64,000 nucleotides of DNA from the NCBI GenBank assembly GCA_034416335.1, contig DAOULV010000018.1, positions 38,788 through 102,787 of the forward strand. Direction: 5' to 3'. The stretch comes from Dehalococcoidales bacterium (GTDB taxonomy: Bacteria; Chloroflexota; Dehalococcoidia; Dehalococcoidales; UBA2162). Shown piece by piece: positions 20,395 to 57,127 of the stretch (its first letter is position 1; each line of letters opens with the position of its first letter). Position numbers and translations under genes: made by a program. The notes under the pieces are model-generated. The model ran no database searches and had not been told where the DNA came from. It saw nothing but the letters and a program-made list of their open reading frames with translations.

Positions 20395-20500
20395 AGTGGC
20401 ATGGGCGGTTGCCAGAGCGAGTGAGGGGTCGAGGGAAGGAATTGATATAGATTGCTACACTTTCCGCCTCGGGCGGATTGACGCCGAGTCTCGCAATGAC
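20395..20500. repeat. REP-like element (tatagattgc...gacgccgagtctcgcaatgac family)
   Basis: Near-identical to segments at 26017-26070 and 26262-26320. Confidence 0.7.
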
Positions 20501-20540
20501 AGCGAGGGCAACCGGGCGACGCCGTGGAGGGCTTTTGATG

Positions 20541-21167
20541 CTATTTCCCGGTGTCGAAGAGCCAATAGAACCGGGTAAGAACACGGGAGGTAGTCTTAGC
20601 TCCTTCGAACCAGGCTCCCCGAAGAGCCTGGTTCATGATCCTGGTCCTGGCGTCAGCGGTATTATTCAGCATGGAGATATCAAGGCTGGCAAGGGAGCTT
20701 TCGAGCCGAACCCGCGCGGAATCGAGTATCTGAGCCTGTATGCGGAGTTTTTCGAGGGCTATACCGGCGCATCTTTTCATTTCCGCACCGCGGGTGTACG
20801 GGCAGATACCGAGCAGGTAATCACGAATGGCGAAGGTCTCGGTAGTGACGGATTTGCGTTTCGGATCGCCCCGGTAGAGGAACTTGAATTCGTCGAGGCG
20901 GGCGGGCAGCACCTGGCGGAGGAACTCGCAGGTTTCGGAATACCATCGCTGGTAGGATGAGGAGAAGCGGCCACAGCGGCGGTTCCTCAGGTTCCGACCG
21001 GCGAGAGTGTCTTCCATATCGAGGCAGAGGTCCCGTGAAACCTCCACCAGCCTGTCCAGGTCCGCCTGTAACTTATCGCTGTTCGGGAAGGAGATATCGC
21101 GGGAATCCTCGGCGATACGTTTCAGTAATTCAAACGATTTACGAAACTCAGTATTTTTAGCGTCCAT
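20541..21167 (-). CDS. Hypothetical protein
   Basis: 208 aa ORF with host-like GC. No motif recognised. It lies downstream of, and co-directional with, the AT-rich defence island. Confidence 0.5.
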   Translation of the reverse strand: MDAKNTEFRKSFELLKRIAEDSRDISFPNSDKLQADLDRLVEVSRDLCLDMEDTLAGRNLRNRRCGRFSSSYQRWYSETCEFLRQVLPARLDEFKFLYRGDPKRKSVTTETFAIRDYLLGICPYTRGAEMKRCAGIALEKLRIQAQILDSARVRLESSLASLDISMLNNTADARTRIMNQALRGAWFEGAKTTSRVLTRFYWLFDTGK

Positions 21168-21343: not shown

Positions 21344-21709
21344 TTAAGATAATTTCTTCTTTAAATTATTCCAAGTCCACGCTACTACCTCTCCAGCACC
21401 TTCGATCCTCTGAGGATTATGTCTTTTCTCGCGAAGTTGGAATCTTCTTTTGTTCAATTGTCGAGCCATTTTGACTTCGCGCAATACACCAGTGGCTTGG
21501 TGTGTGTTTTCTCTTAATAGAACAACAAACACGTTGCAGTTATTAATCGCCTCTCTTGCTCTTTGTTGCCAATTTGGTATTCGACCTTCTAGTGACATAT
21601 CTTTTACAGAAAACGGTGAATCTTGTCGTTCGGATTGAGCAATAAAATTGTTTTTCATGTCTAGATCATGTTCGTAATCGAAACTCAAAAATACTTTGGT
21701 TTTTGACAT
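21344..21709 (-). CDS. TIR-like protein (DUF1863 / ThsB-like)
   Basis: Start taken at the internal ATG (MSKTKVFLSFDYEHD...). The FLSFDYE N-terminal strand, the NCNVFVVLL strand and the GVLREVKMA helix with a conserved Glu match the ThsB/MTH538 TIR-like pattern. AT-rich. Confidence 0.7.
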   Translation of the reverse strand: MSKTKVFLSFDYEHDLDMKNNFIAQSERQDSPFSVKDMSLEGRIPNWQQRAREAINNCNVFVVLLRENTHQATGVLREVKMARQLNKRRFQLREKRHNPQRIEGAGEVVAWTWNNLKKKLS

Positions 21710-21734: not shown

Positions 21735-22628
21735 CTATGGGGTATCCCTCCTAGCTCTCCATTGTGTATGTTCTCTTGAAAATGCGTTTTCAGCATCACC
21801 TACAAATTTTGAAAATTCTTTTTCATCTTTGATTTCCGAATGCGCCGCTCGTACAATACTAATCTCATGGGCTGTAAAAATGTATGAAGTAGCCAAATCT
21901 TGAAAACGTTTTGCTTGTATCCAAGCTACAACAGATGCTGCTAATGTTGAGAATATACCTGTGGGGTAATATAGCCATTCAGGAACAAAGATTCTTATAA
22001 TAGCAGAAGATATCGCACATATCTGAAAAGCGATCATGACATAGAACCAAATATTGCCTCTATGTTTATTTTTAGAAGACGTGTTCGTATACCAAGCTCT
22101 TTGATGGTCAATTCTATTAGTAAGATAGATGTTTTTTCTTTGTTCAAAATCAAGTTCTCTGATATAATCCATAGATTCAGTTATTTGTTCACGGTCAGAA
22201 GAACCGTTATTGAAATATTTACAAATATCGCTTACTTCTCCGAGTATTCTTTTTAATTCGCTTAATAATAGTGCTCTTGCCGTATCATCATCATACGGTT
22301 CTGCTTTCATCATATATCTCCAGCAAATAGTTTTTATTGATTCAGTAGCAGACCTGGCAAGATACCACAATCTGTCATATCTTTTTAACACTAGTATATA
22401 AGAATATATAGGTACGATTAGCAGTATAGTAGCTGTGATTATAGACAAGGTTATTACATCACTAGGGAAGATAGAGAATATGGCTGCTAACGATAGTAAA
22501 ATCAGGATGGAACCTATCCCGATATAATGGTATCTTTGTGTAATCTTTGAAACATGACTAGTTTCTTTATATAAGGCTGGATATACTGAAGAATCTAATT
22601 TCAAATCATTCATGTTCATTCTTCTCAA
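21735..22628 (-). CDS. Double SLATT / DUF4231-like 4-TM membrane protein (putative effector)
   Basis: 297 aa. Two 2-TM hairpins (about aa 35-85 and 195-245) are each followed by an amphipathic helix (W..ARSATESIK..WRY and RFQDLATSYIFTAHEI). The start overlaps the upstream gene's stop (ATGAATGA). Alternative ATG starts at 22619 and 22613. Confidence 0.65.
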   Translation of the reverse strand: MRRMNMNDLKLDSSVYPALYKETSHVSKITQRYHYIGIGSILILLSLAAIFSIFPSDVITLSIITATILLIVPIYSYILVLKRYDRLWYLARSATESIKTICWRYMMKAEPYDDDTARALLLSELKRILGEVSDICKYFNNGSSDREQITESMDYIRELDFEQRKNIYLTNRIDHQRAWYTNTSSKNKHRGNIWFYVMIAFQICAISSAIIRIFVPEWLYYPTGIFSTLAASVVAWIQAKRFQDLATSYIFTAHEISIVRAAHSEIKDEKEFSKFVGDAENAFSREHTQWRARRDTP

Positions 22629-24738
22629 ATAATATTACATCATAATTTTCTTTTAATTCTGTAGAAGCCTTTTGGCGAAAACAGGAAATCACCTCATTGG
22701 CAAAATTGAACAAGGTTTTAGTTATTTCAGTACAGCTATATTCAGGAGAATATATAAATAGATCAGGAAAATTTACAGCGAGATATTCTAAAGGTGTGTG
22801 TAATAAGTTATGTGAAAAGCGTAACAGATCTGCTATCTTAACCATTGTTTCAAGTGTTCGCTCAGGTAATCTATAAAATGAGGGCGATTCGAAAATATTA
22901 AATATGTCTATTAAACATTCATCATATTTATTGGGAGTTTTCCCCATACAAAGAGCAACTCGCCTTATAATGCATGGAAGGCAATCTCCATCGTGAATAC
23001 CTTGATAATCAAAGATATCTAACCTCTTGGCTAATATTTTTACTCTAGAGTAGTTATAACATGAACTTGTAAATGGAATAATAACTCTAGATAATCTTTT
23101 GTTTGCAATATATTTAACGATTTGACCTTTAGTTTTATATTTATAAGGATTCGAGATTGAAATATTAAGGTCAAATACCGAATTTATAGTAGATTGATAC
23201 GTTTCAATGAATTTAGGGTGAACAGTATGGGTGTTTACATGAGATTCTGACATAAGTGGATTAATAGCTATGGGTCCATTCTCAAACATAAATATATTAG
23301 TATTTCCTACCTCGACTGAGACTGCATAAGCTATTGATAAATAAAAGAATGACCTTAAATGTTGGAGAAATAAATCTCTATGGTAACCTTTTAACTTATA
23401 GGAACCCTTCTTCTTCCTTGAAGGTTGCCAAGATACTTTCAAATGAGGTAGATCTGTATTCATTACATGGTTCATCTGGTCTAATAACCTTGTCTGAATC
23501 CCTGATAAATTACCGGAGGCATAACTAATTAGACTAGGTGAATATCCTTTACTTATTGCCCATATTATTCCAGCAGCGCTATCTATGCCGCCTGAAAATA
23601 GGCAACTGCATCCATTTTCCACTTTAGTGAATTTGATATTTTCAACTTTCGGTTCGTTATTAGCGGAAAAATATAGATTAATAGTATCTCTTGAGAGATA
23701 CGATATTGTTTTTGATAACGATGATTTTTGACTTTGCCAAATTTCCGGGTGACGAACTGGTATATATACATCAAGTTCTCGATAATAGTCAATATCCCTG
23801 TCTATGTATAAATCAGATATATATATAACAAAAGCTATCTCTAATAAATCACGCGTTAGGGAGTTTAAGGGGTGTCCTACGAAAGATTCAATATCTGATA
23901 AATCGAATGATACGTTTTTATCTTTGCCATTGAGGATTATTCTAATGGCGTTATCATCTACAATATAATCTTCGGAAAGTTTTTTTATAGGAATTTTCCC
24001 AACGATAACATTAATTCTAGTTTTTTGATTTCTTTTTCCTGAATTATCATCACGCCAACTAAGGAAAGGGAGTTTCTCCTTAAATCCAGTAGAAATTCGT
24101 TTAATTTTCGAGTTAATGCGACCTTTTGCTTGAGAATCAATGAAATATGGTACAAGTGATTTGGCTATATCATTACATTTACTAAATATAGCTTGTCTTA
24201 AAATATTTTGTTCATCTGTACTAACAAGTTTACCGTTAAGGAATTGGTATGAATATCCGAAATCCGTGCTGCCCTGAGATTTCCCACGAAGAATAGTCAT
24301 ACTTTGGTTAAAAAGAAAGTATGAAAGGAAAGTTTCAAATATAGTGGTTAGATTAATGTCTTTAGATAATGAATAAATCTCTTTAATAAACTGAATATTA
24401 CTAAAATTTTGTCCCTGTTTATCAGGGAATAATCTGGGGGAATCTAATAGTGTTAATGATATTGTTTGCTTAAAAGATCGTTCAATAATGTCACCAAGAG
24501 GAAATGTATATAGACTTGGATTATCTCTGGTAACGATATCATATATTAAATCGGAGAACGAATAAGGCTCGAGTTTAATTTCATCAGAGAAATCATCTTC
24601 ATTAACAAATGCAGAAAAACGTTCTTCGTGTAAACAGCGCAGTAAAGCATTTAAACTTACGGCACATATATATAATTTTTTGGAAGTATCATTTATCTTA
24701 TATGAAGCAAAAGCTTGTGTTAGCAAATAATCAATCAT
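22606..24738 (-). CDS. Large QueC-like PP-loop ATP-pyrophosphatase fusion protein (N-terminal ~290 aa unknown)
   Basis: 710 aa. PP-loop LFSGGIDS at aa 380-387 (plus 23578-23595). The pre-PP-loop segment DLLEIAFVIYISD..IPV is similar to QatC-type proteins. C-terminal Cys cluster C560/C586xxC589/C597. Confidence 0.7.
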   Translation of the reverse strand: MIDYLLTQAFASYKINDTSKKLYICAVSLNALLRCLHEERFSAFVNEDDFSDEIKLEPYSFSDLIYDIVTRDNPSLYTFPLGDIIERSFKQTISLTLLDSPRLFPDKQGQNFSNIQFIKEIYSLSKDINLTTIFETFLSYFLFNQSMTILRGKSQGSTDFGYSYQFLNGKLVSTDEQNILRQAIFSKCNDIAKSLVPYFIDSQAKGRINSKIKRISTGFKEKLPFLSWRDDNSGKRNQKTRINVIVGKIPIKKLSEDYIVDDNAIRIILNGKDKNVSFDLSDIESFVGHPLNSLTRDLLEIAFVIYISDLYIDRDIDYYRELDVYIPVRHPEIWQSQKSSLSKTISYLSRDTINLYFSANNEPKVENIKFTKVENGCSCLFSGGIDSAAGIIWAISKGYSPSLISYASGNLSGIQTRLLDQMNHVMNTDLPHLKVSWQPSRKKKGSYKLKGYHRDLFLQHLRSFFYLSIAYAVSVEVGNTNIFMFENGPIAINPLMSESHVNTHTVHPKFIETYQSTINSVFDLNISISNPYKYKTKGQIVKYIANKRLSRVIIPFTSSCYNYSRVKILAKRLDIFDYQGIHDGDCLPCIIRRVALCMGKTPNKYDECLIDIFNIFESPSFYRLPERTLETMVKIADLLRFSHNLLHTPLEYLAVNFPDLFIYSPEYSCTEITKTLFNFANEVISCFRQKASTELKENYDVILFEKNEHE

Positions 24739-24780: not shown

Positions 24781-25389
24781 CTAGCCACTTACTCCACGCC
24801 TTCTCTCAATTTGTTTTGTCCTTTTACTTAAGACTTTAGCAAATTCTGCATCGGGGTCTTCTAACCAATCTTGTAAAGCAGCAAAGTCAGGATTGTAAGC
24901 GATGTCTTCTTGCCACGATTCCTGTGTAGTAAAAGGACCTTCGGAAGCTAGTTTATAGTATTCACTTATTGTATTTTCCGAATTTGATTTGGGTTTTCTT
25001 ATAGCATTGACTATATTCTTAGTATTCCATTTTACCTGGTGGTTAAAAACCTGTAGTTCTCGTGGTAGTCTTTGCGATCCATGTGGACTTACTACAATTA
25101 TGTTTTTATCCATCTCAAGTGCAATTTCTATTTCTTTATGAATCCATTTACGATGTTTGGTATACATACCAGCGATAATTAAAACAGATTTAGCAGGACG
25201 TATTTGCCTTCTTAAAGAAGCTTCGAGTTGTGATTCACTCTTCCTAGCGAACCTACGATCTTGGGGGACACTATAATTCCGAAATTTAAAACGCTTGTGA
25301 TCTGATAACAATTCAGAAAGGCGTTCGTAATCACTACTACGACTCCATACATGACTTATGAAAATAGGATAACTTTTTAACTTTGGCAT
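24781..25389 (-). CDS. TIR-like protein (DUF1863 / ThsB-like) with C-terminal extension
   Basis: 202 aa. YPIFISHVW..DY N-terminal strand, the SVLIIAG strand, and WIHKEIEIA with a conserved Glu. First gene of the operon. Confidence 0.7.
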   Translation of the reverse strand: MPKLKSYPIFISHVWSRSSDYERLSELLSDHKRFKFRNYSVPQDRRFARKSESQLEASLRRQIRPAKSVLIIAGMYTKHRKWIHKEIEIALEMDKNIIVVSPHGSQRLPRELQVFNHQVKWNTKNIVNAIRKPKSNSENTISEYYKLASEGPFTTQESWQEDIAYNPDFAALQDWLEDPDAEFAKVLSKRTKQIERRRGVSG

Positions 25390-25447: not shown

Positions 25448-25754
25448 CATATTAAAATAGTCGCGTACTTAAGAGATAAATTGCTAACCGGTTTGGAATA
25501 ACGGCTAACATTCTACGGACATTCATACACGAAATACAAGTCAGTAATGATCTGACCGTTATCAACCCATCCCTTTTCCGTCTCTCCCGATTTTCATGCG
25601 GGATATGGTCTTTCCCTTGATAAGGGAAGGGAGAGACTTACAAATAGAACTCGTATTTAGTTGCGGCGATTACTGTTATTATAATTCCGTTCGCCCCCGT
25701 ATCAAGTACGGGGCAGGTTCTGAGCTTGTCGAAGGGCGCCGTTGTGGTTCGACA

Positions 25755-25912
25755 GGCTCACCACGAACGGCTGACTATGGACGGCTCACCACGAATGGCT
25801 AACTATGGACGGTTCATCACGAACGGCTAACTATGGACGGCTCACCACGAACGGCTAACTATGGACGGTTCATCACGAACGGCTGACTATGGACGGTTCA
25901 TCACGAACGGCT
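25755..25912. repeat. 28-bp tandem repeat, about 5.6 copies
   Basis: ggctcaccacgaacggctRactatggac repeats with an exact 28-bp period (unit starts at 25755, 25783, 25811, 25839, 25867, 25895). There are no spacers. Confidence 0.9.
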
Positions 25913-26009
25913 TGATTATCATACTTTTCTGTGCAACCAGGTACTCGTGCCGGTAAAATTCCACTTATTGATGGTATGGGGCGGTCGCCAGGGCAAGCAA
26001 GAGGTCGAG

Positions 26010-26445
26010 GGAAGGAATTTATATAGATTGCCACGTCTCGGCTATTGACGCCGAGTCTCGCAATGACAGTGGGGAACGGATTGGCATCCGCCTGCGGCGG
26101 ACCTGTTGACGGCGGACCTCGCAATGACCCGCCTATGCCAACCCACCTACGTTAAAACTTCGGCGGACAAGGGCTTCGGCGGGCAGGCAGGAGATGGGTT
26201 CATCCTTCGACAAGCTCAGGACGAACGGGATAAAGTGTAGTCTCGCAATGACTTGAGGGTGTTATTTATAGAGATTGCCACGTCTCGGCTATTGACGCCG
26301 AGTCTCGCAATGACAGTGGGGAACGGATTGGCATCCGCCTGCGGCGGACCTGTTGGCGGCGGACCTCGCAATGACCCGCCTGCGTCAGGGCTTCGGCGGG
26401 CAGGCAGGAGATGGGTTCATCCTTCGACAGGCTCAGGACGAACGG
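26010..26445. repeat. Segmental duplication of composite REP elements (about 115 bp core x2)
   Basis: 26017-26135 and 26262-26385 are near-identical (tatagattgccacgtctcggctattgacgccgagtctcgcaatgacagtggggaacgg...). Both are followed by gggcttcggcgggcaggcaggagatgggttcatccttcgaca. Confidence 0.85.
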
Positions 26446-26825
26446 GAGAGGGTCAGGGTGAGGGGGCTAGGCGCAAATCGTTACTTTTCACCCTCACCTA
26501 ACCTCTCCCGTCAAGGGAGAGGAATGTCCTGATTGATATTAAGTGATGTTGATCGGAGGTTTCTTATCAAGGGAGAGGGTCAGGGTGAGGGGGCTAGGCG
26601 CAAATCGTTGTTTTTCACCCTCACCTAACCTCTCCCGTCAAGGGAGAGGAATATCCTGGTCGATATTAAGAGATGTTAATCAGAGGTTTTTTATCAAGGG
26701 AGAGGGTCAGGGTGAGGGGCTAGGCGCAAATCGTTACTTTTCACCCTCACCTAACCTCTCCCGTCAAGGGAGAGGAATGACTTGATCAATAGAGGGAGAG
26801 GAATATCCTGATAGATATTCGAGTT
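26444..26825. repeat. 127-bp tandem repeat x3, each unit a nested hairpin element
   Basis: gggagagggtcagggtgaggg starts at 26444, 26571 and 26698. Each unit contains the palindromes gggtgaggg..caccctcacc and cctctcccgtcaagggagagg. Confidence 0.9.
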
Positions 26826-38690: not shown

Positions 38691-39242
38691 CTAGACCTTG
38701 AGATATTCTAATATCTGGGCGGTCATTATTTCGGCACTCAGCAGCTGTTCAAACCTGACTAACCGGCACGGTAGTGTTTTCATCCATTCTTCGTGGAGCG
38801 CCCTGCTTCGCATTTCCGTTCCGGCGGTGTCGTACTGTGCCGCCCATTCCATAAAGCCAGCGTGGTTTTCATGAAACCATCCTCCCGGCGCCAGGGCTGC
38901 TTCGCCGAACCGTTTCAGTTCCCTCTCCCTGAGCCTTGAGAGACGCAGGTCCTGAGGTATCCAGAGAAACACCACCATGGTAAACATCGGGATTGAGAAG
39001 TCACCCCATCCGCAGAGAGAACCGGACAGCACCCACGAAGGATATTTCTCAAGATCGGGCTTCAACAACTCAACCCGCTGTTCCGGCTCTCTTTTTTCCG
39101 TGTAAGGGATCTCGGTTTTCACCCAGTAATAGTCATCGGTGTCCAGGTGAGGAATGCCGAGACGTTCGGCAAGTGCTTTACCGAGGGTAGTTGTCCCCGA
39201 ACCAGCAGACCCGAATATGTGTATCCTGTTATTCATGCCCAT
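38691..39242 (-). CDS. P-loop NTPase, adenylate/shikimate-kinase-like
   Basis: 183 aa. Walker A motif GSAGSGTTTLG. Confidence 0.7.
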   Translation of the reverse strand: MGMNNRIHIFGSAGSGTTTLGKALAERLGIPHLDTDDYYWVKTEIPYTEKREPEQRVELLKPDLEKYPSWVLSGSLCGWGDFSIPMFTMVVFLWIPQDLRLSRLRERELKRFGEAALAPGGWFHENHAGFMEWAAQYDTAGTEMRSRALHEEWMKTLPCRLVRFEQLLSAEIMTAQILEYLKV

Positions 39243-57050: not shown

Positions 57051-57127
57051 CGGGGTGTAGCGCAGCCAGGTAGCGCACCTGAATGGGGTTCAGGTGGTCG
57101 GAGGTTCAAATCCTCTCACCCCGACCA
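57051..57127 (+). tRNA. tRNA-Pro (anticodon GGG), CCA encoded
   Basis: Cloverleaf read by hand. Acceptor CGGGGTG/CACCCCG, D arm GCGC-AGCCAGGTA-GCGC, anticodon stem CCTGA/TCAGG. The anticodon loop is A-T-GGG-G-T. T arm GGAGG-TTCAAAT-CCTCT, followed by ACCA. Confidence 0.9.

Follow-up and report, generated by a model that had tools for sequence, protein, structure and literature searches.

The window analysed here is a stretch of 64,000 nucleotides (nt) from a Dehalococcoidales bacterium (GenBank assembly GCA_034416335.1, contig DAOULV010000018.1, forward-strand positions 38,788 to 102,787). Its main subject is a gene for a protein of 710 amino acids (aa) in which a helical body related to QatB is fused to a complete QatC, a PP-loop enzyme of the QueC family. 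The gene lies in a 4-kb AT-rich island (~32% G+C, with flanks of ~49%), where four genes follow one another on the minus strand with tight or overlapping junctions: a 202-aa TIR gene, the fusion gene, a SLATT gene, which begins within the 3' end of the fusion gene, and a small TIR gene (Table 1). An earlier note on this DNA, made from the letters alone, had described the 710-aa product as QueC-like with an unassigned N-terminal region and had named TIR and SLATT proteins as its partners; Pfam and PADLOC matches in the adjoining genes bear out these partners.

Table 1 Features of the fusion gene and its operon, in window positions (ORF, open reading frame)
Feature	Position (nt)	Strand	Basis
QatB–QatC fusion gene, 710 aa	22606..24738	minus	Single uninterrupted ORF, ATG start, 710 codons
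Fusion aa 1-225, all-helical QatB-like body without MGTS tail	24064..24738	minus	AlphaFold2, profile search, hhalign
Fusion aa 236-372, QatC N-terminal alpha/beta extension (Var1)	23623..24033	minus	PADLOC, BLAST, full-length model
Fusion aa 373-600, QueC-family PP-loop Rossmann core	22939..23622	minus	PDB QatC matches, Foldseek
PP-loop LFSGGIDS, aa 380-387, ATP pyrophosphate-binding motif	23578..23601	minus	Sequence motif
NTHTVHP, aa 502-508, with QatC-specific TxT pair T503/T505	23215..23235	minus	Alignment to E. coli QatC
Metal-site region, C560 … H582-D583-G-D-C586-L-P-C589	22972..23061	minus	Family alignment
Fusion aa 601-710, C-terminal helical extension (QatC Var4 equivalent)	22609..22938	minus	AlphaFold2 helices 612-709; Foldseek
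Upstream ThsB-type TIR gene, 202 aa	24781-25389	minus	Pfam, PADLOC
TIR domain of upstream partner, aa 8-134	24988..25368	minus	Pfam ThsB_TIR 1.9e-17, PADLOC ThsB 6.6e-16
C-terminal tail of upstream TIR, aa 135-202	24784..24987	minus	Alignment; terminal E-R-R-R-G-V-S-G at nt 24784-24807
SLATT_3+SLATT_1 membrane protein, 297 aa	21735..22628	minus	Pfam SLATT_1 2.6e-36, SLATT_3 4.9e-26
Small TIR-like protein, 121 aa from ATG at 21709	21344..21709	minus	Pfam ThsB_TIR 4.2e-5
Promoter-like TTGACA-17-TATTAT, 30 nt upstream of TIR start codon	25419..25447	minus	11/12 consensus matches; consensus match only

From about residue 236 to its end, the protein comprises an entire PP-loop enzyme of the QatC type. 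Residues 291-601 are matched by the PADLOC QatC model (E 3.2e-45; profile positions 56-367 of 453), the Pfam QueC match is partial (residues 507-596, E 3e-7), and QueC and QatC are the only families that Pfam and PADLOC find in the fusion. Among PDB sequences the QatC chains 9vlk_A (E 1.7e-24) and 9zee_B (E 1e-20) are matched, and the top Foldseek match of the fusion model is 9y01_B, the QatC of a QatB–QatC complex (E 9e-15; 493 aligned columns, target TM-score 0.71), with all of QatC covered; QueC and Cap9 follow at E ~1.5e-3. The possibility, raised in the earlier note, that the C-terminal half aligns better with another PP-loop family found no support, as the fold matches to ThiI, ArgG (argininosuccinate synthetase), LarE, NAD synthetase and TtuA are insignificant (E of at least 0.1). 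The same note had placed the PP-loop LFSGGIDS at residues 380-387, far from the N-terminus, where the translated ORF indeed has it, and had seen a QatC-like module ahead of it. This module is present (LTRDLLEIAFVIYISDLY…IPVRHPEIW at residues ~294-334), but the QatC-homologous part starts at about residue 236-242 and not at ~290: in BLAST, fusion residue 242 aligns with residue 7 of a 448-aa stand-alone QatC from locus L132, residues 7-443 of which are covered, and the strands at 240-278 are confident in the full-length model only.

The catalytic residues agree with this assignment. When 30 family members were compared with 47 canonical QatCs from genome loci, the residues conserved in canonical QatC were all invariant in the family, namely D297, D309, R314, R320, Q415 and R462, together with SGGxDS, E486-N-G, T503, T505, H507-P, K537, C560, C586 and C589. 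The PP-loop residues L380, S382, G383, G384, D386 and S387 are invariant in both sets, and P327-V328 and W334 in the Var1 region are invariant in the family. T503/T505, aligned with sTRTTHP of E. coli QatC, form the TxT pair that in QatC replaces the Tyr/Asp with which QueC and Cap9 bind 7-carboxy-7-deazaguanine (CDG), and this pair is essential for Qat defence (PMC13279940; PMC13639016). CDG is recognized in QueC through the motifs YxQxHxxE, VPxRN and YPDC (PMC13329287).

An ordinary queuosine/preQ0 biosynthetic QueC with an accessory domain would account for the Pfam QueC match and for the source annotations '7-cyano-7-deazaguanine synthase', and the fusion does share with canonical QueC an ATP pyrophosphatase core with a PP-loop and, towards the C-terminus, a metal site rich in Cys. 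Nevertheless, canonical QueC (~220 aa) has its PP-loop at the N-terminus, whereas the fusion is three times longer with the PP-loop 380 residues in, and T503/T505 occupy the positions of the CDG-recognition Tyr/Asp. QatC moreover fails to complement a ΔqueC strain (PMC13329287), and the setting is a defence island with TIR and SLATT genes in which no queD, queE or queF is adjacent to the fusion gene. A biosynthetic role is therefore practically negligible as an explanation, and the PADLOC, PDB, Foldseek and TxT evidence sides with the QatC-type assignment that the earlier note had preferred.

At the metal site, C560, C586 and C589 are invariant in the family, as is H582. The first position of the canonical CxxCxxC is Asp583 in the fusion and Cys in 5/20 homologues; the canonical site is a four-Cys Zn site (PMC13376578). 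Three of the four cysteines listed in the earlier note thus hold up as conserved, whereas the fourth, C597, is present in the 710-aa protein yet not conserved. In two family members of 985-986 aa (P0037 and P0042), the Cys loop of the metal site is interrupted by ~250-residue low-complexity insertions rich in Ala, Lys and Val, and another insertion follows the PP-loop region.

Ahead of the QatC part, residues 1-225 are all-helical, and AlphaFold2 models them with a predicted local distance difference test score (pLDDT) of ~85-95 both alone and in the full-length model. Direct searches with residues 1-293 against PDB sequences, Pfam and PADLOC (all members) gave no match; Foldseek of the N-terminal region gave a best E of 1.4 in the PDB, QatB chains included, and nothing in BFVD; and hhalign of the region against 32 canonical QatBs gave a probability below 1%. 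The link to QatB surfaced solely through an exhaustive profile search of 1.84 billion representative proteins, in which the profile of residues 1-232 had 72 matches, nearly all of them the N-termini of 670-800-aa proteins. The stand-alone matches, 254-270 aa in length, are P0074 (E 1.5e-15), P0078 (E 1.2e-12), P0082 and P0084; each starts with MGTS, continues with a tail of 30-50 residues and then aligns its body with profile positions ~20-224. In hhalign the module matches these MGTS QatB-like proteins at 99.5% (E 2e-22, 215 columns), and they in turn match canonical QatB at 86.7% (E 4e-6); the PADLOC models do not recognize this divergent branch. What the earlier note had left as an unassigned N-terminus of ~290 aa is thus an extra module of ~225 aa with an identity, that of a tail-less QatB-like body.

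The P0078 gene lies immediately upstream of a 448-aa QueC-family (QatC) gene, and this QatC is the closest unfused relative of the QatC half of the fusion (E 7e-58; others ≤1.6e-37). Because the module matches P0078-type proteins and the QatC adjacent to P0078 is the nearest unfused relative, the fusion derives from the P0078 branch. Judged from its sequence, then, the 710-aa protein unites a QatB-like body that has no tail and a complete QatC in one chain. Its start, MIDYLL…, is helical, and in the alignment with the QatB-like proteins residue 1 of the fusion falls at about their residue 33, so the N-terminal glycine tail is gone; the locus has no separate QatB gene, the QatB-like body being fused and tail-less. 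In canonical systems the N-terminal glycine tail of QatB inserts in the QatC active site and is essential, while the helical body of QatB docks onto QatC. Since the module is homologous to this body, the N-terminal extension is plausibly a docking module, which agrees with one of the roles that the earlier note had offered for it. The operon from which P0078 comes (L132, 3997-7153) is a divergent Qat-like operon that encodes a FokI-cleavage-domain protein (330 aa), P0078 itself (268 aa, MGTS QatB-like) and the 448-aa QatC.

The earlier note had also considered that the N-terminal region might be a separate gene merged in error through a hidden frameshift. A word-indexed search found 26 proteins of about 520-800 aa, most of ~700 aa, at 28-54% identity, and homologues occur in metagenome-assembled genomes of Candidatus Nealsonbacteria and in Dehalococcoides mccartyi; the metagenome scan took residues 238-352 as its query. 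Twenty full-length homologues align collinearly from end to end (26-50% identity), with P80, G82, E86, R87, R151, G247 and N275 of the N-terminal region invariant among them and a conserved motif, YPLG(D/E)xxERSxK, in the helical module. From the family alignment, AlphaFold2 models a single compact chain with a pLDDT of 86 and a predicted template modelling score (pTM) of 0.88. Because the homologues are collinear, the N-terminal residues invariant and the model a single compact chain, a frameshift or mis-merged gene is excluded, and the exhaustive profile search points the same way.

The second distinguishing feature of the family lies in the gene upstream. In the first five loci, the gene immediately upstream of the fusion encodes a TIR protein of ~200 aa, the last residues of which are invariably …ERRRGxSG-stop. 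The tail of the window protein consists of a variable linker, a conserved W159…PDF..L..W175 element and an invariant E-R-R-R-G-V-S-G-stop. Among the fetched distinct family loci with a readable upstream gene, the upstream protein has a terminal Gly on a flexible tail in 23/23. The partners are TIRs at 14 loci, where they end in …RRRG(V/T/M)SG, …RRRGMHG, …KRHGVSG or …RR(G/S)GMSG. At nine loci they are non-TIR proteins, ten small proteins that are mutually unrelated by BLAST and all end in Gly (…SMGSGG, …RSGSGG, …SGSGG, …YRMGGGG, …KGGGSSG, …GGGGGQG, …SGGGGG, …LPGMPG, …VPGGGGGG). Eleven BLAST-unrelated partner families thus all have a terminal Gly, against a background of 9.9% of mechanically called ORFs. 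As a control, 32/32 canonical QatBs start with MGTS and 5/32 end in Gly. At two loci (L007, 5782-6998; L010, 5189-5975) proteins whose tails are of extremely low complexity (such as poly-Asp/Glu or Gly/Ser) are encoded before or alongside the non-TIR partners. Upstream of the fusion gene of L010, two small ORFs that end in Gly follow each other, and one of them also starts with MG.

The N-termini of the partners follow a different pattern. The TIR partners share an invariant MP(K/R)xK, and the ten non-TIR families have no common N-terminal motif, one of them starting with MG. The nearest relatives of the tailed TIR are tail-less TIRs of 130-143 aa (45-54% identical) that are paired with a small membrane protein, and these also carry an N-terminal MPxLK…FISH. 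Because the tail-less relatives have the same N-terminus, it is the 65-residue Gly-terminated tail, and not the N-terminus, that represents the adaptation to life with the fusion enzyme. Pro2 of the TIR as a specific acceptor is weakened for the same reason, MPxLK being common to the tail-less relatives. At L134-L137 such relatives (130-136 aa) form two-gene units with a 147-159-aa PF24838 (8xMP) protein, which are probably a minimal Thoeris-like system; the unit at L137 adjoins type I restriction and GmrSD genes.

The first substrate of PP-loop enzymes is adenylated at an oxygen atom, after which an amine attacks. In QueC, Cap9, asparagine synthetase-type enzymes and NAD synthetase, the adenylated first substrate is a carboxylate. 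We tentatively favour the reading that the fusion serves as the ancillary enzyme for protein modification in a Thoeris-like operon of the abortive-infection kind, in which it would adenylate the C-terminal Gly of its partner and so license TIR signalling. Here the upstream ThsB-type TIR would be the signal generator and, because it is type VII-like, would probably make a signal of the cyclic ADP-ribose (cADPR) type; the downstream SLATT protein would be the membrane-disrupting effector. The fusion enzyme would bind ATP through SGGxDS and engage the TIR by its added 65-residue tail, the terminal glycine of which would enter the QatC peptide cleft. It would then most likely adenylate the terminal carboxylate of the TIR, and an amine would react with the activated carboxylate, so that a conjugate or cap would be attached through an amide bond. 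By analogy with Cap2, which acts on the C-termini of CD-NTases in type II CBASS (cyclic oligonucleotide-based antiphage signalling system), and with Cap9, which acts on their N-termini in type IV CBASS, the modification may license or tune TIR signalling. We infer tail entry and carboxylate adenylation because the acceptor tail of the QatB-like body is deleted while every partner offers a terminal Gly carboxylate; what is joined and how signalling responds are inferred as well.

The loss of the MGTS acceptor tail and the invariant C-terminal glycine tail of the partners together argue for a different polarity of substrate engagement. In a stronger form, a QueC-family enzyme with a QatB-derived dock would be an E1-like activator of the C-terminal Gly of the TIR or of other Gly-tailed immune proteins. 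A protein, nucleobase or small molecule would then supply the amine to which the terminal carboxylate is joined, and Thoeris signalling would be primed in this way; we regard this as a real, if doubtful, possibility. Several residues set the family apart from canonical QatC: R329/H330 (variable or Asp in canonical QatC), E498 in the active-site loop (Arg/Pro in canonical QatC) and, in the C-terminal extension, D637, R640, F641, P658 and D659. Of these, R329/H330, E498, D637, R640 and D659 are candidate determinants for a basic, carboxylate-terminated tail.

Several points weigh against adenylation of the partner C-terminus. Taken at face value, the eleven Gly-ended families have a naive P of ~9e-12, although the Gly-rich tails are non-independent trials; many of the non-TIR partners have Gly-rich low-complexity tails, in which a terminal Gly is likelier by chance, and the ORF calls are mechanical. 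At L009 and L104 the TIR, fusion and ASCH genes occur with no immediately adjacent SLATT gene, a caspase set lying upstream at L104, so that the tie to the effector does not hold everywhere. Conservation of the TxT pocket points to possible use of the same small-molecule substrate as in canonical QatC. To our knowledge, adenylation of a protein C-terminus by a QueC-family enzyme is without precedent. The published chemistry of QatC and Cap9 takes a protein N-terminal amine as the nucleophile and activates a small carboxylate (CDG/NDG): Cap9 attaches CDG to a CD-NTase at its N-terminal Gly, and QatC holds Gly2 of QatB beside the ATP alpha-phosphate, with traces of NDG-modified QatB seen but no activity reconstituted.

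The main alternative is canonical QatC/Cap9 chemistry in a new docking mode. A small carboxylate (CDG or the QatC substrate) would be put on a partner amine, either Pro2 after Met removal or a lysine, and the Gly-terminated tail would serve as a dock or for positioning only. The catalytic and TxT residues are identical to those of canonical QatC, the NDG-modified N-terminal peptide of QatB has been detected by liquid chromatography–tandem mass spectrometry in published work, the TIR partners have their invariant MP(K/R)xK, and Thoeris operons with Cap9/10/11 exist. We nevertheless consider this alternative somewhat unlikely. MPxLK also occurs in the tail-less relatives, which have no QatC partner, and neither a common N-terminal motif nor more than one MG start is found in the ten non-TIR families. 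Furthermore, the TIR N-terminus is only ~7 residues ahead of strand 1, whereas QatB tails have 30-90 aa, and it is the acceptor tail that the fused QatB-like body has specifically lost. The suggestion in the earlier note of a 7-deazaguanine-type ligation keeps its footing in the published N-terminal-glycine model of Cap9 and QatC but needs revision, the MGTS tail being lost and the partners being tailed with a C-terminal Gly.

A terminal glycine presented to a PP-loop enzyme also recalls sulfur relay, where the partner glycine would be a (thio)carboxylate carrier docking in a three-Cys enzyme, as in TtuA–TtuB and Ncs6–Urm1. Some PP-loop enzymes are known to take in a C-terminal Gly tail, the weak fold matches include TtuA–TtuB (5gha), and most family members have three metal-site Cys with Asp583 as the fourth position. 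However, the TtuA-type matches are insignificant (E of at least 0.5), and both fold and sequence are those of QatC, the Cys site of which binds structural Zn. The partners are TIRs or low-complexity proteins and not beta-grasp carriers, and E1/ThiF, rhodanese and cysteine desulfurase genes are absent from the loci; we therefore rate a sulfur relay as very improbable. For the E1-type machinery in general, neither ThiF/E1 nor E2 nor JAB domains were found in the window operon or family loci.

The context of C-terminal activation, as we favour it, is that of Thoeris. The tailed TIR shares 37% identity with the TIR of the validated Pseudohongiella type VII Thoeris system (E 5e-23, with the invariant WIxKEI, E86, included), and validated type VII Thoeris consists of a TIR and a SLATT effector with cADPR as the signal. 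The small TIR shows no resemblance to the validated type VII TIRs (E 0.013); its mechanical ORF reaches a GTG at 21799. By hydropathy, the SLATT protein has transmembrane-like segments at about residues 33-82 and 192-216. SLATT genes accompany the fusion in the window, L003, L093, L095 and L099. Elsewhere, a caspase-like Peptidase_C14 protein, a small TIR and a 169-aa protein take this place (L005, L103/104, L107, P0016), and the small TIRs of the caspase-type variants L005 and L103/104 are homologous to that of the window. An ASCH-domain protein is found with both TIR and non-TIR partners (L007, L009, L010, L011, L104, L106, L114). The third component thus swaps around a constant core, as is typical of signalling defence systems. 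The ASCH protein was considered as a YqfB-type amidohydrolase, an acyl-nucleobase 'eraser', but this is not supported: the Thr nucleophile is replaced by Glu in the classic GxKxxExR motif.

The same variation could mean that two adjacent systems are being read as one. The Gly-tailed TIR and the fusion, often with ASCH, would then be self-contained, with the TIR or other Gly-tailed cargo as effector or conjugated tag, and SLATT or caspase with the small TIR would be an independent two-gene Thoeris. Non-TIR partners do replace the TIR in ten families, L009 consists of TIR, fusion and ASCH only, a second small TIR stands beside the effector in the window and in the caspase-type loci, and tail-less TIR relatives form two-gene units with a membrane protein. 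Such a division is improbable, however, because in L003 and L093 the start codon of the SLATT gene overlaps the stop codon of the preceding fusion gene and a second TIR is absent. Furthermore, the four genes of the window share one strand and one AT-rich island with tight or overlapping junctions, and it is the tailed TIR and not the small one that resembles the validated type VII TIRs.

The proposed single system, with the fusion acting on its Gly-tailed partner, has likenesses in several known systems. With the QatC of QatABCD (PDB 9y01/9y02, 9vlk/9vll, 9zee/9zef) the fusion shares the fold, the Var1 extension, the PP-loop core, the C-terminal helical extension, SGGxDS, TxT and K537, and both work with a QatB-type helical body. 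The differences are that this body is covalently N-terminal and without the MGTS acceptor tail, that no QatA- or TatD-type (QatD) genes were found in the window operon or family loci, that the first Zn cysteine is Asp, and that the glycine tail of the partner, a TIR or another small protein, is C-terminal and not N-terminal. Cap9 of type IV CBASS (PDB 9nto) is likewise a QueC-family ancillary modifier of a signal-generating enzyme in abortive-infection signalling. However, it has ~185 aa, keeps the CDG-binding Tyr/Asp, modifies an N-terminal Gly (MGGS CD-NTase) and works with Cap10/Cap11, none of which applies to the fusion; CD-NTase and TGT-like genes are absent from the locus.

A parallel in operon logic is Cap2/Cap3 in type II CBASS and Thoeris (bioRxiv 10.64898/2025.12.03.692087), where the flexible tail of the signalling enzyme ends in a conserved glycine and the tailed enzyme is encoded next to an ATP-dependent activating enzyme. 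There the activating enzyme is an E1/E2 fusion, whereas here it is a PP-loop QueC-family protein, and a recurrent ASCH gene stands in place of a JAB/Cap3-type peptidase. The same Thoeris survey describes Cap2/Cap3 operons with C-terminal-glycine-tailed ThsB and Cap9/10/11 operons, and no QatC-type partner. Type VII Thoeris (ThsB TIR and the SLATT effector ThsH) resembles the window in its ThsB-type TIR and adjacent SLATT; the window TIR differs by its extra 65-aa Gly-terminated tail, and the locus by the fusion gene between TIR and SLATT and by the second small TIR. No prior description of QatB–QatC fusions or QatC–Thoeris operons was found in the literature searched, and the three QatBC structure papers and the PF06508 survey mention neither fusions nor a TIR association.

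These findings matter because QueC-family enzymes have only recently been shown to modify proteins in immunity (Cap9), and the QatC reaction was not reconstituted in three 2026 structural papers. The present clade is a natural experiment, in which QatB has been joined to QatC and has lost its N-terminal acceptor tail, while a separate partner now bears the substrate handle, at its C-terminus; in the window, that partner is a Thoeris TIR with a well-defined readout (NAD-derived signal and SLATT killing). There is a substantial chance that the fusion hides new chemistry. If the C-terminal glycine is adenylated, this would be a new, E1-independent way to activate protein C-termini, and Cap2 and Cap9 would be joined by a third kind of machinery that primes signalling immunity in bacteria. 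If the E1-like reading holds, ubiquitin-like or C-terminal-capping conjugation would occur on a non-E1 scaffold, and the QatB/QatC machinery would work with either peptide polarity. Even the conservative reading would extend Qat-type chemistry into Thoeris, and QatB would gain a traceable divergent family and a docking role.

Other QatC variants were encountered alongside the fusion family. A separate QatC subfamily of ~620 aa (L117-L130, L008; the P0027 family) carries the PP-loop in the canonical position (~residues 152-160) and has a long C-terminal extension. Its upstream partner of 252-261 aa starts with MGH(Q/I/N)RLG(K/R)LP, a QatB-style N-terminal glycine in another motif, and at L008 an ADP-ribosylglycohydrolase gene lies downstream. 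At L069, L070, L077, L131 and L061, a QatC variant has an upstream partner of 195-223 aa that starts with MPDGDKF… and not with MGTS, Pro being the N-terminal residue after Met removal.

The surroundings of the island are rich in repeats. Direct repeats of ~105 nt at 20403-20507 and 25979-26074 (also 26291-26321) are 86-94% identical and 5.57 kb apart; they bracket the AT-rich island together with a GC-rich 208-aa ORF (20541-21167, minus strand; no family matches) and may be the boundary of an insertion or recombination event. No ORF with a family match was found between 25400 and 26840. This region upstream of the operon is repeat-dense, with nine in-register copies of a 14/28-nt unit (GGCTCACCACGAACGGCTAACTATGGAC…) at 25727-25940, three tandem 127-nt units at 26444-26823 and a 118-nt pair, 98% identical, at 26017-26134 and 26264-26381. 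Far from the island, a tRNA-Pro (GGG) at 57051-57127 is the sole Rfam/ARAGORN match in the window.

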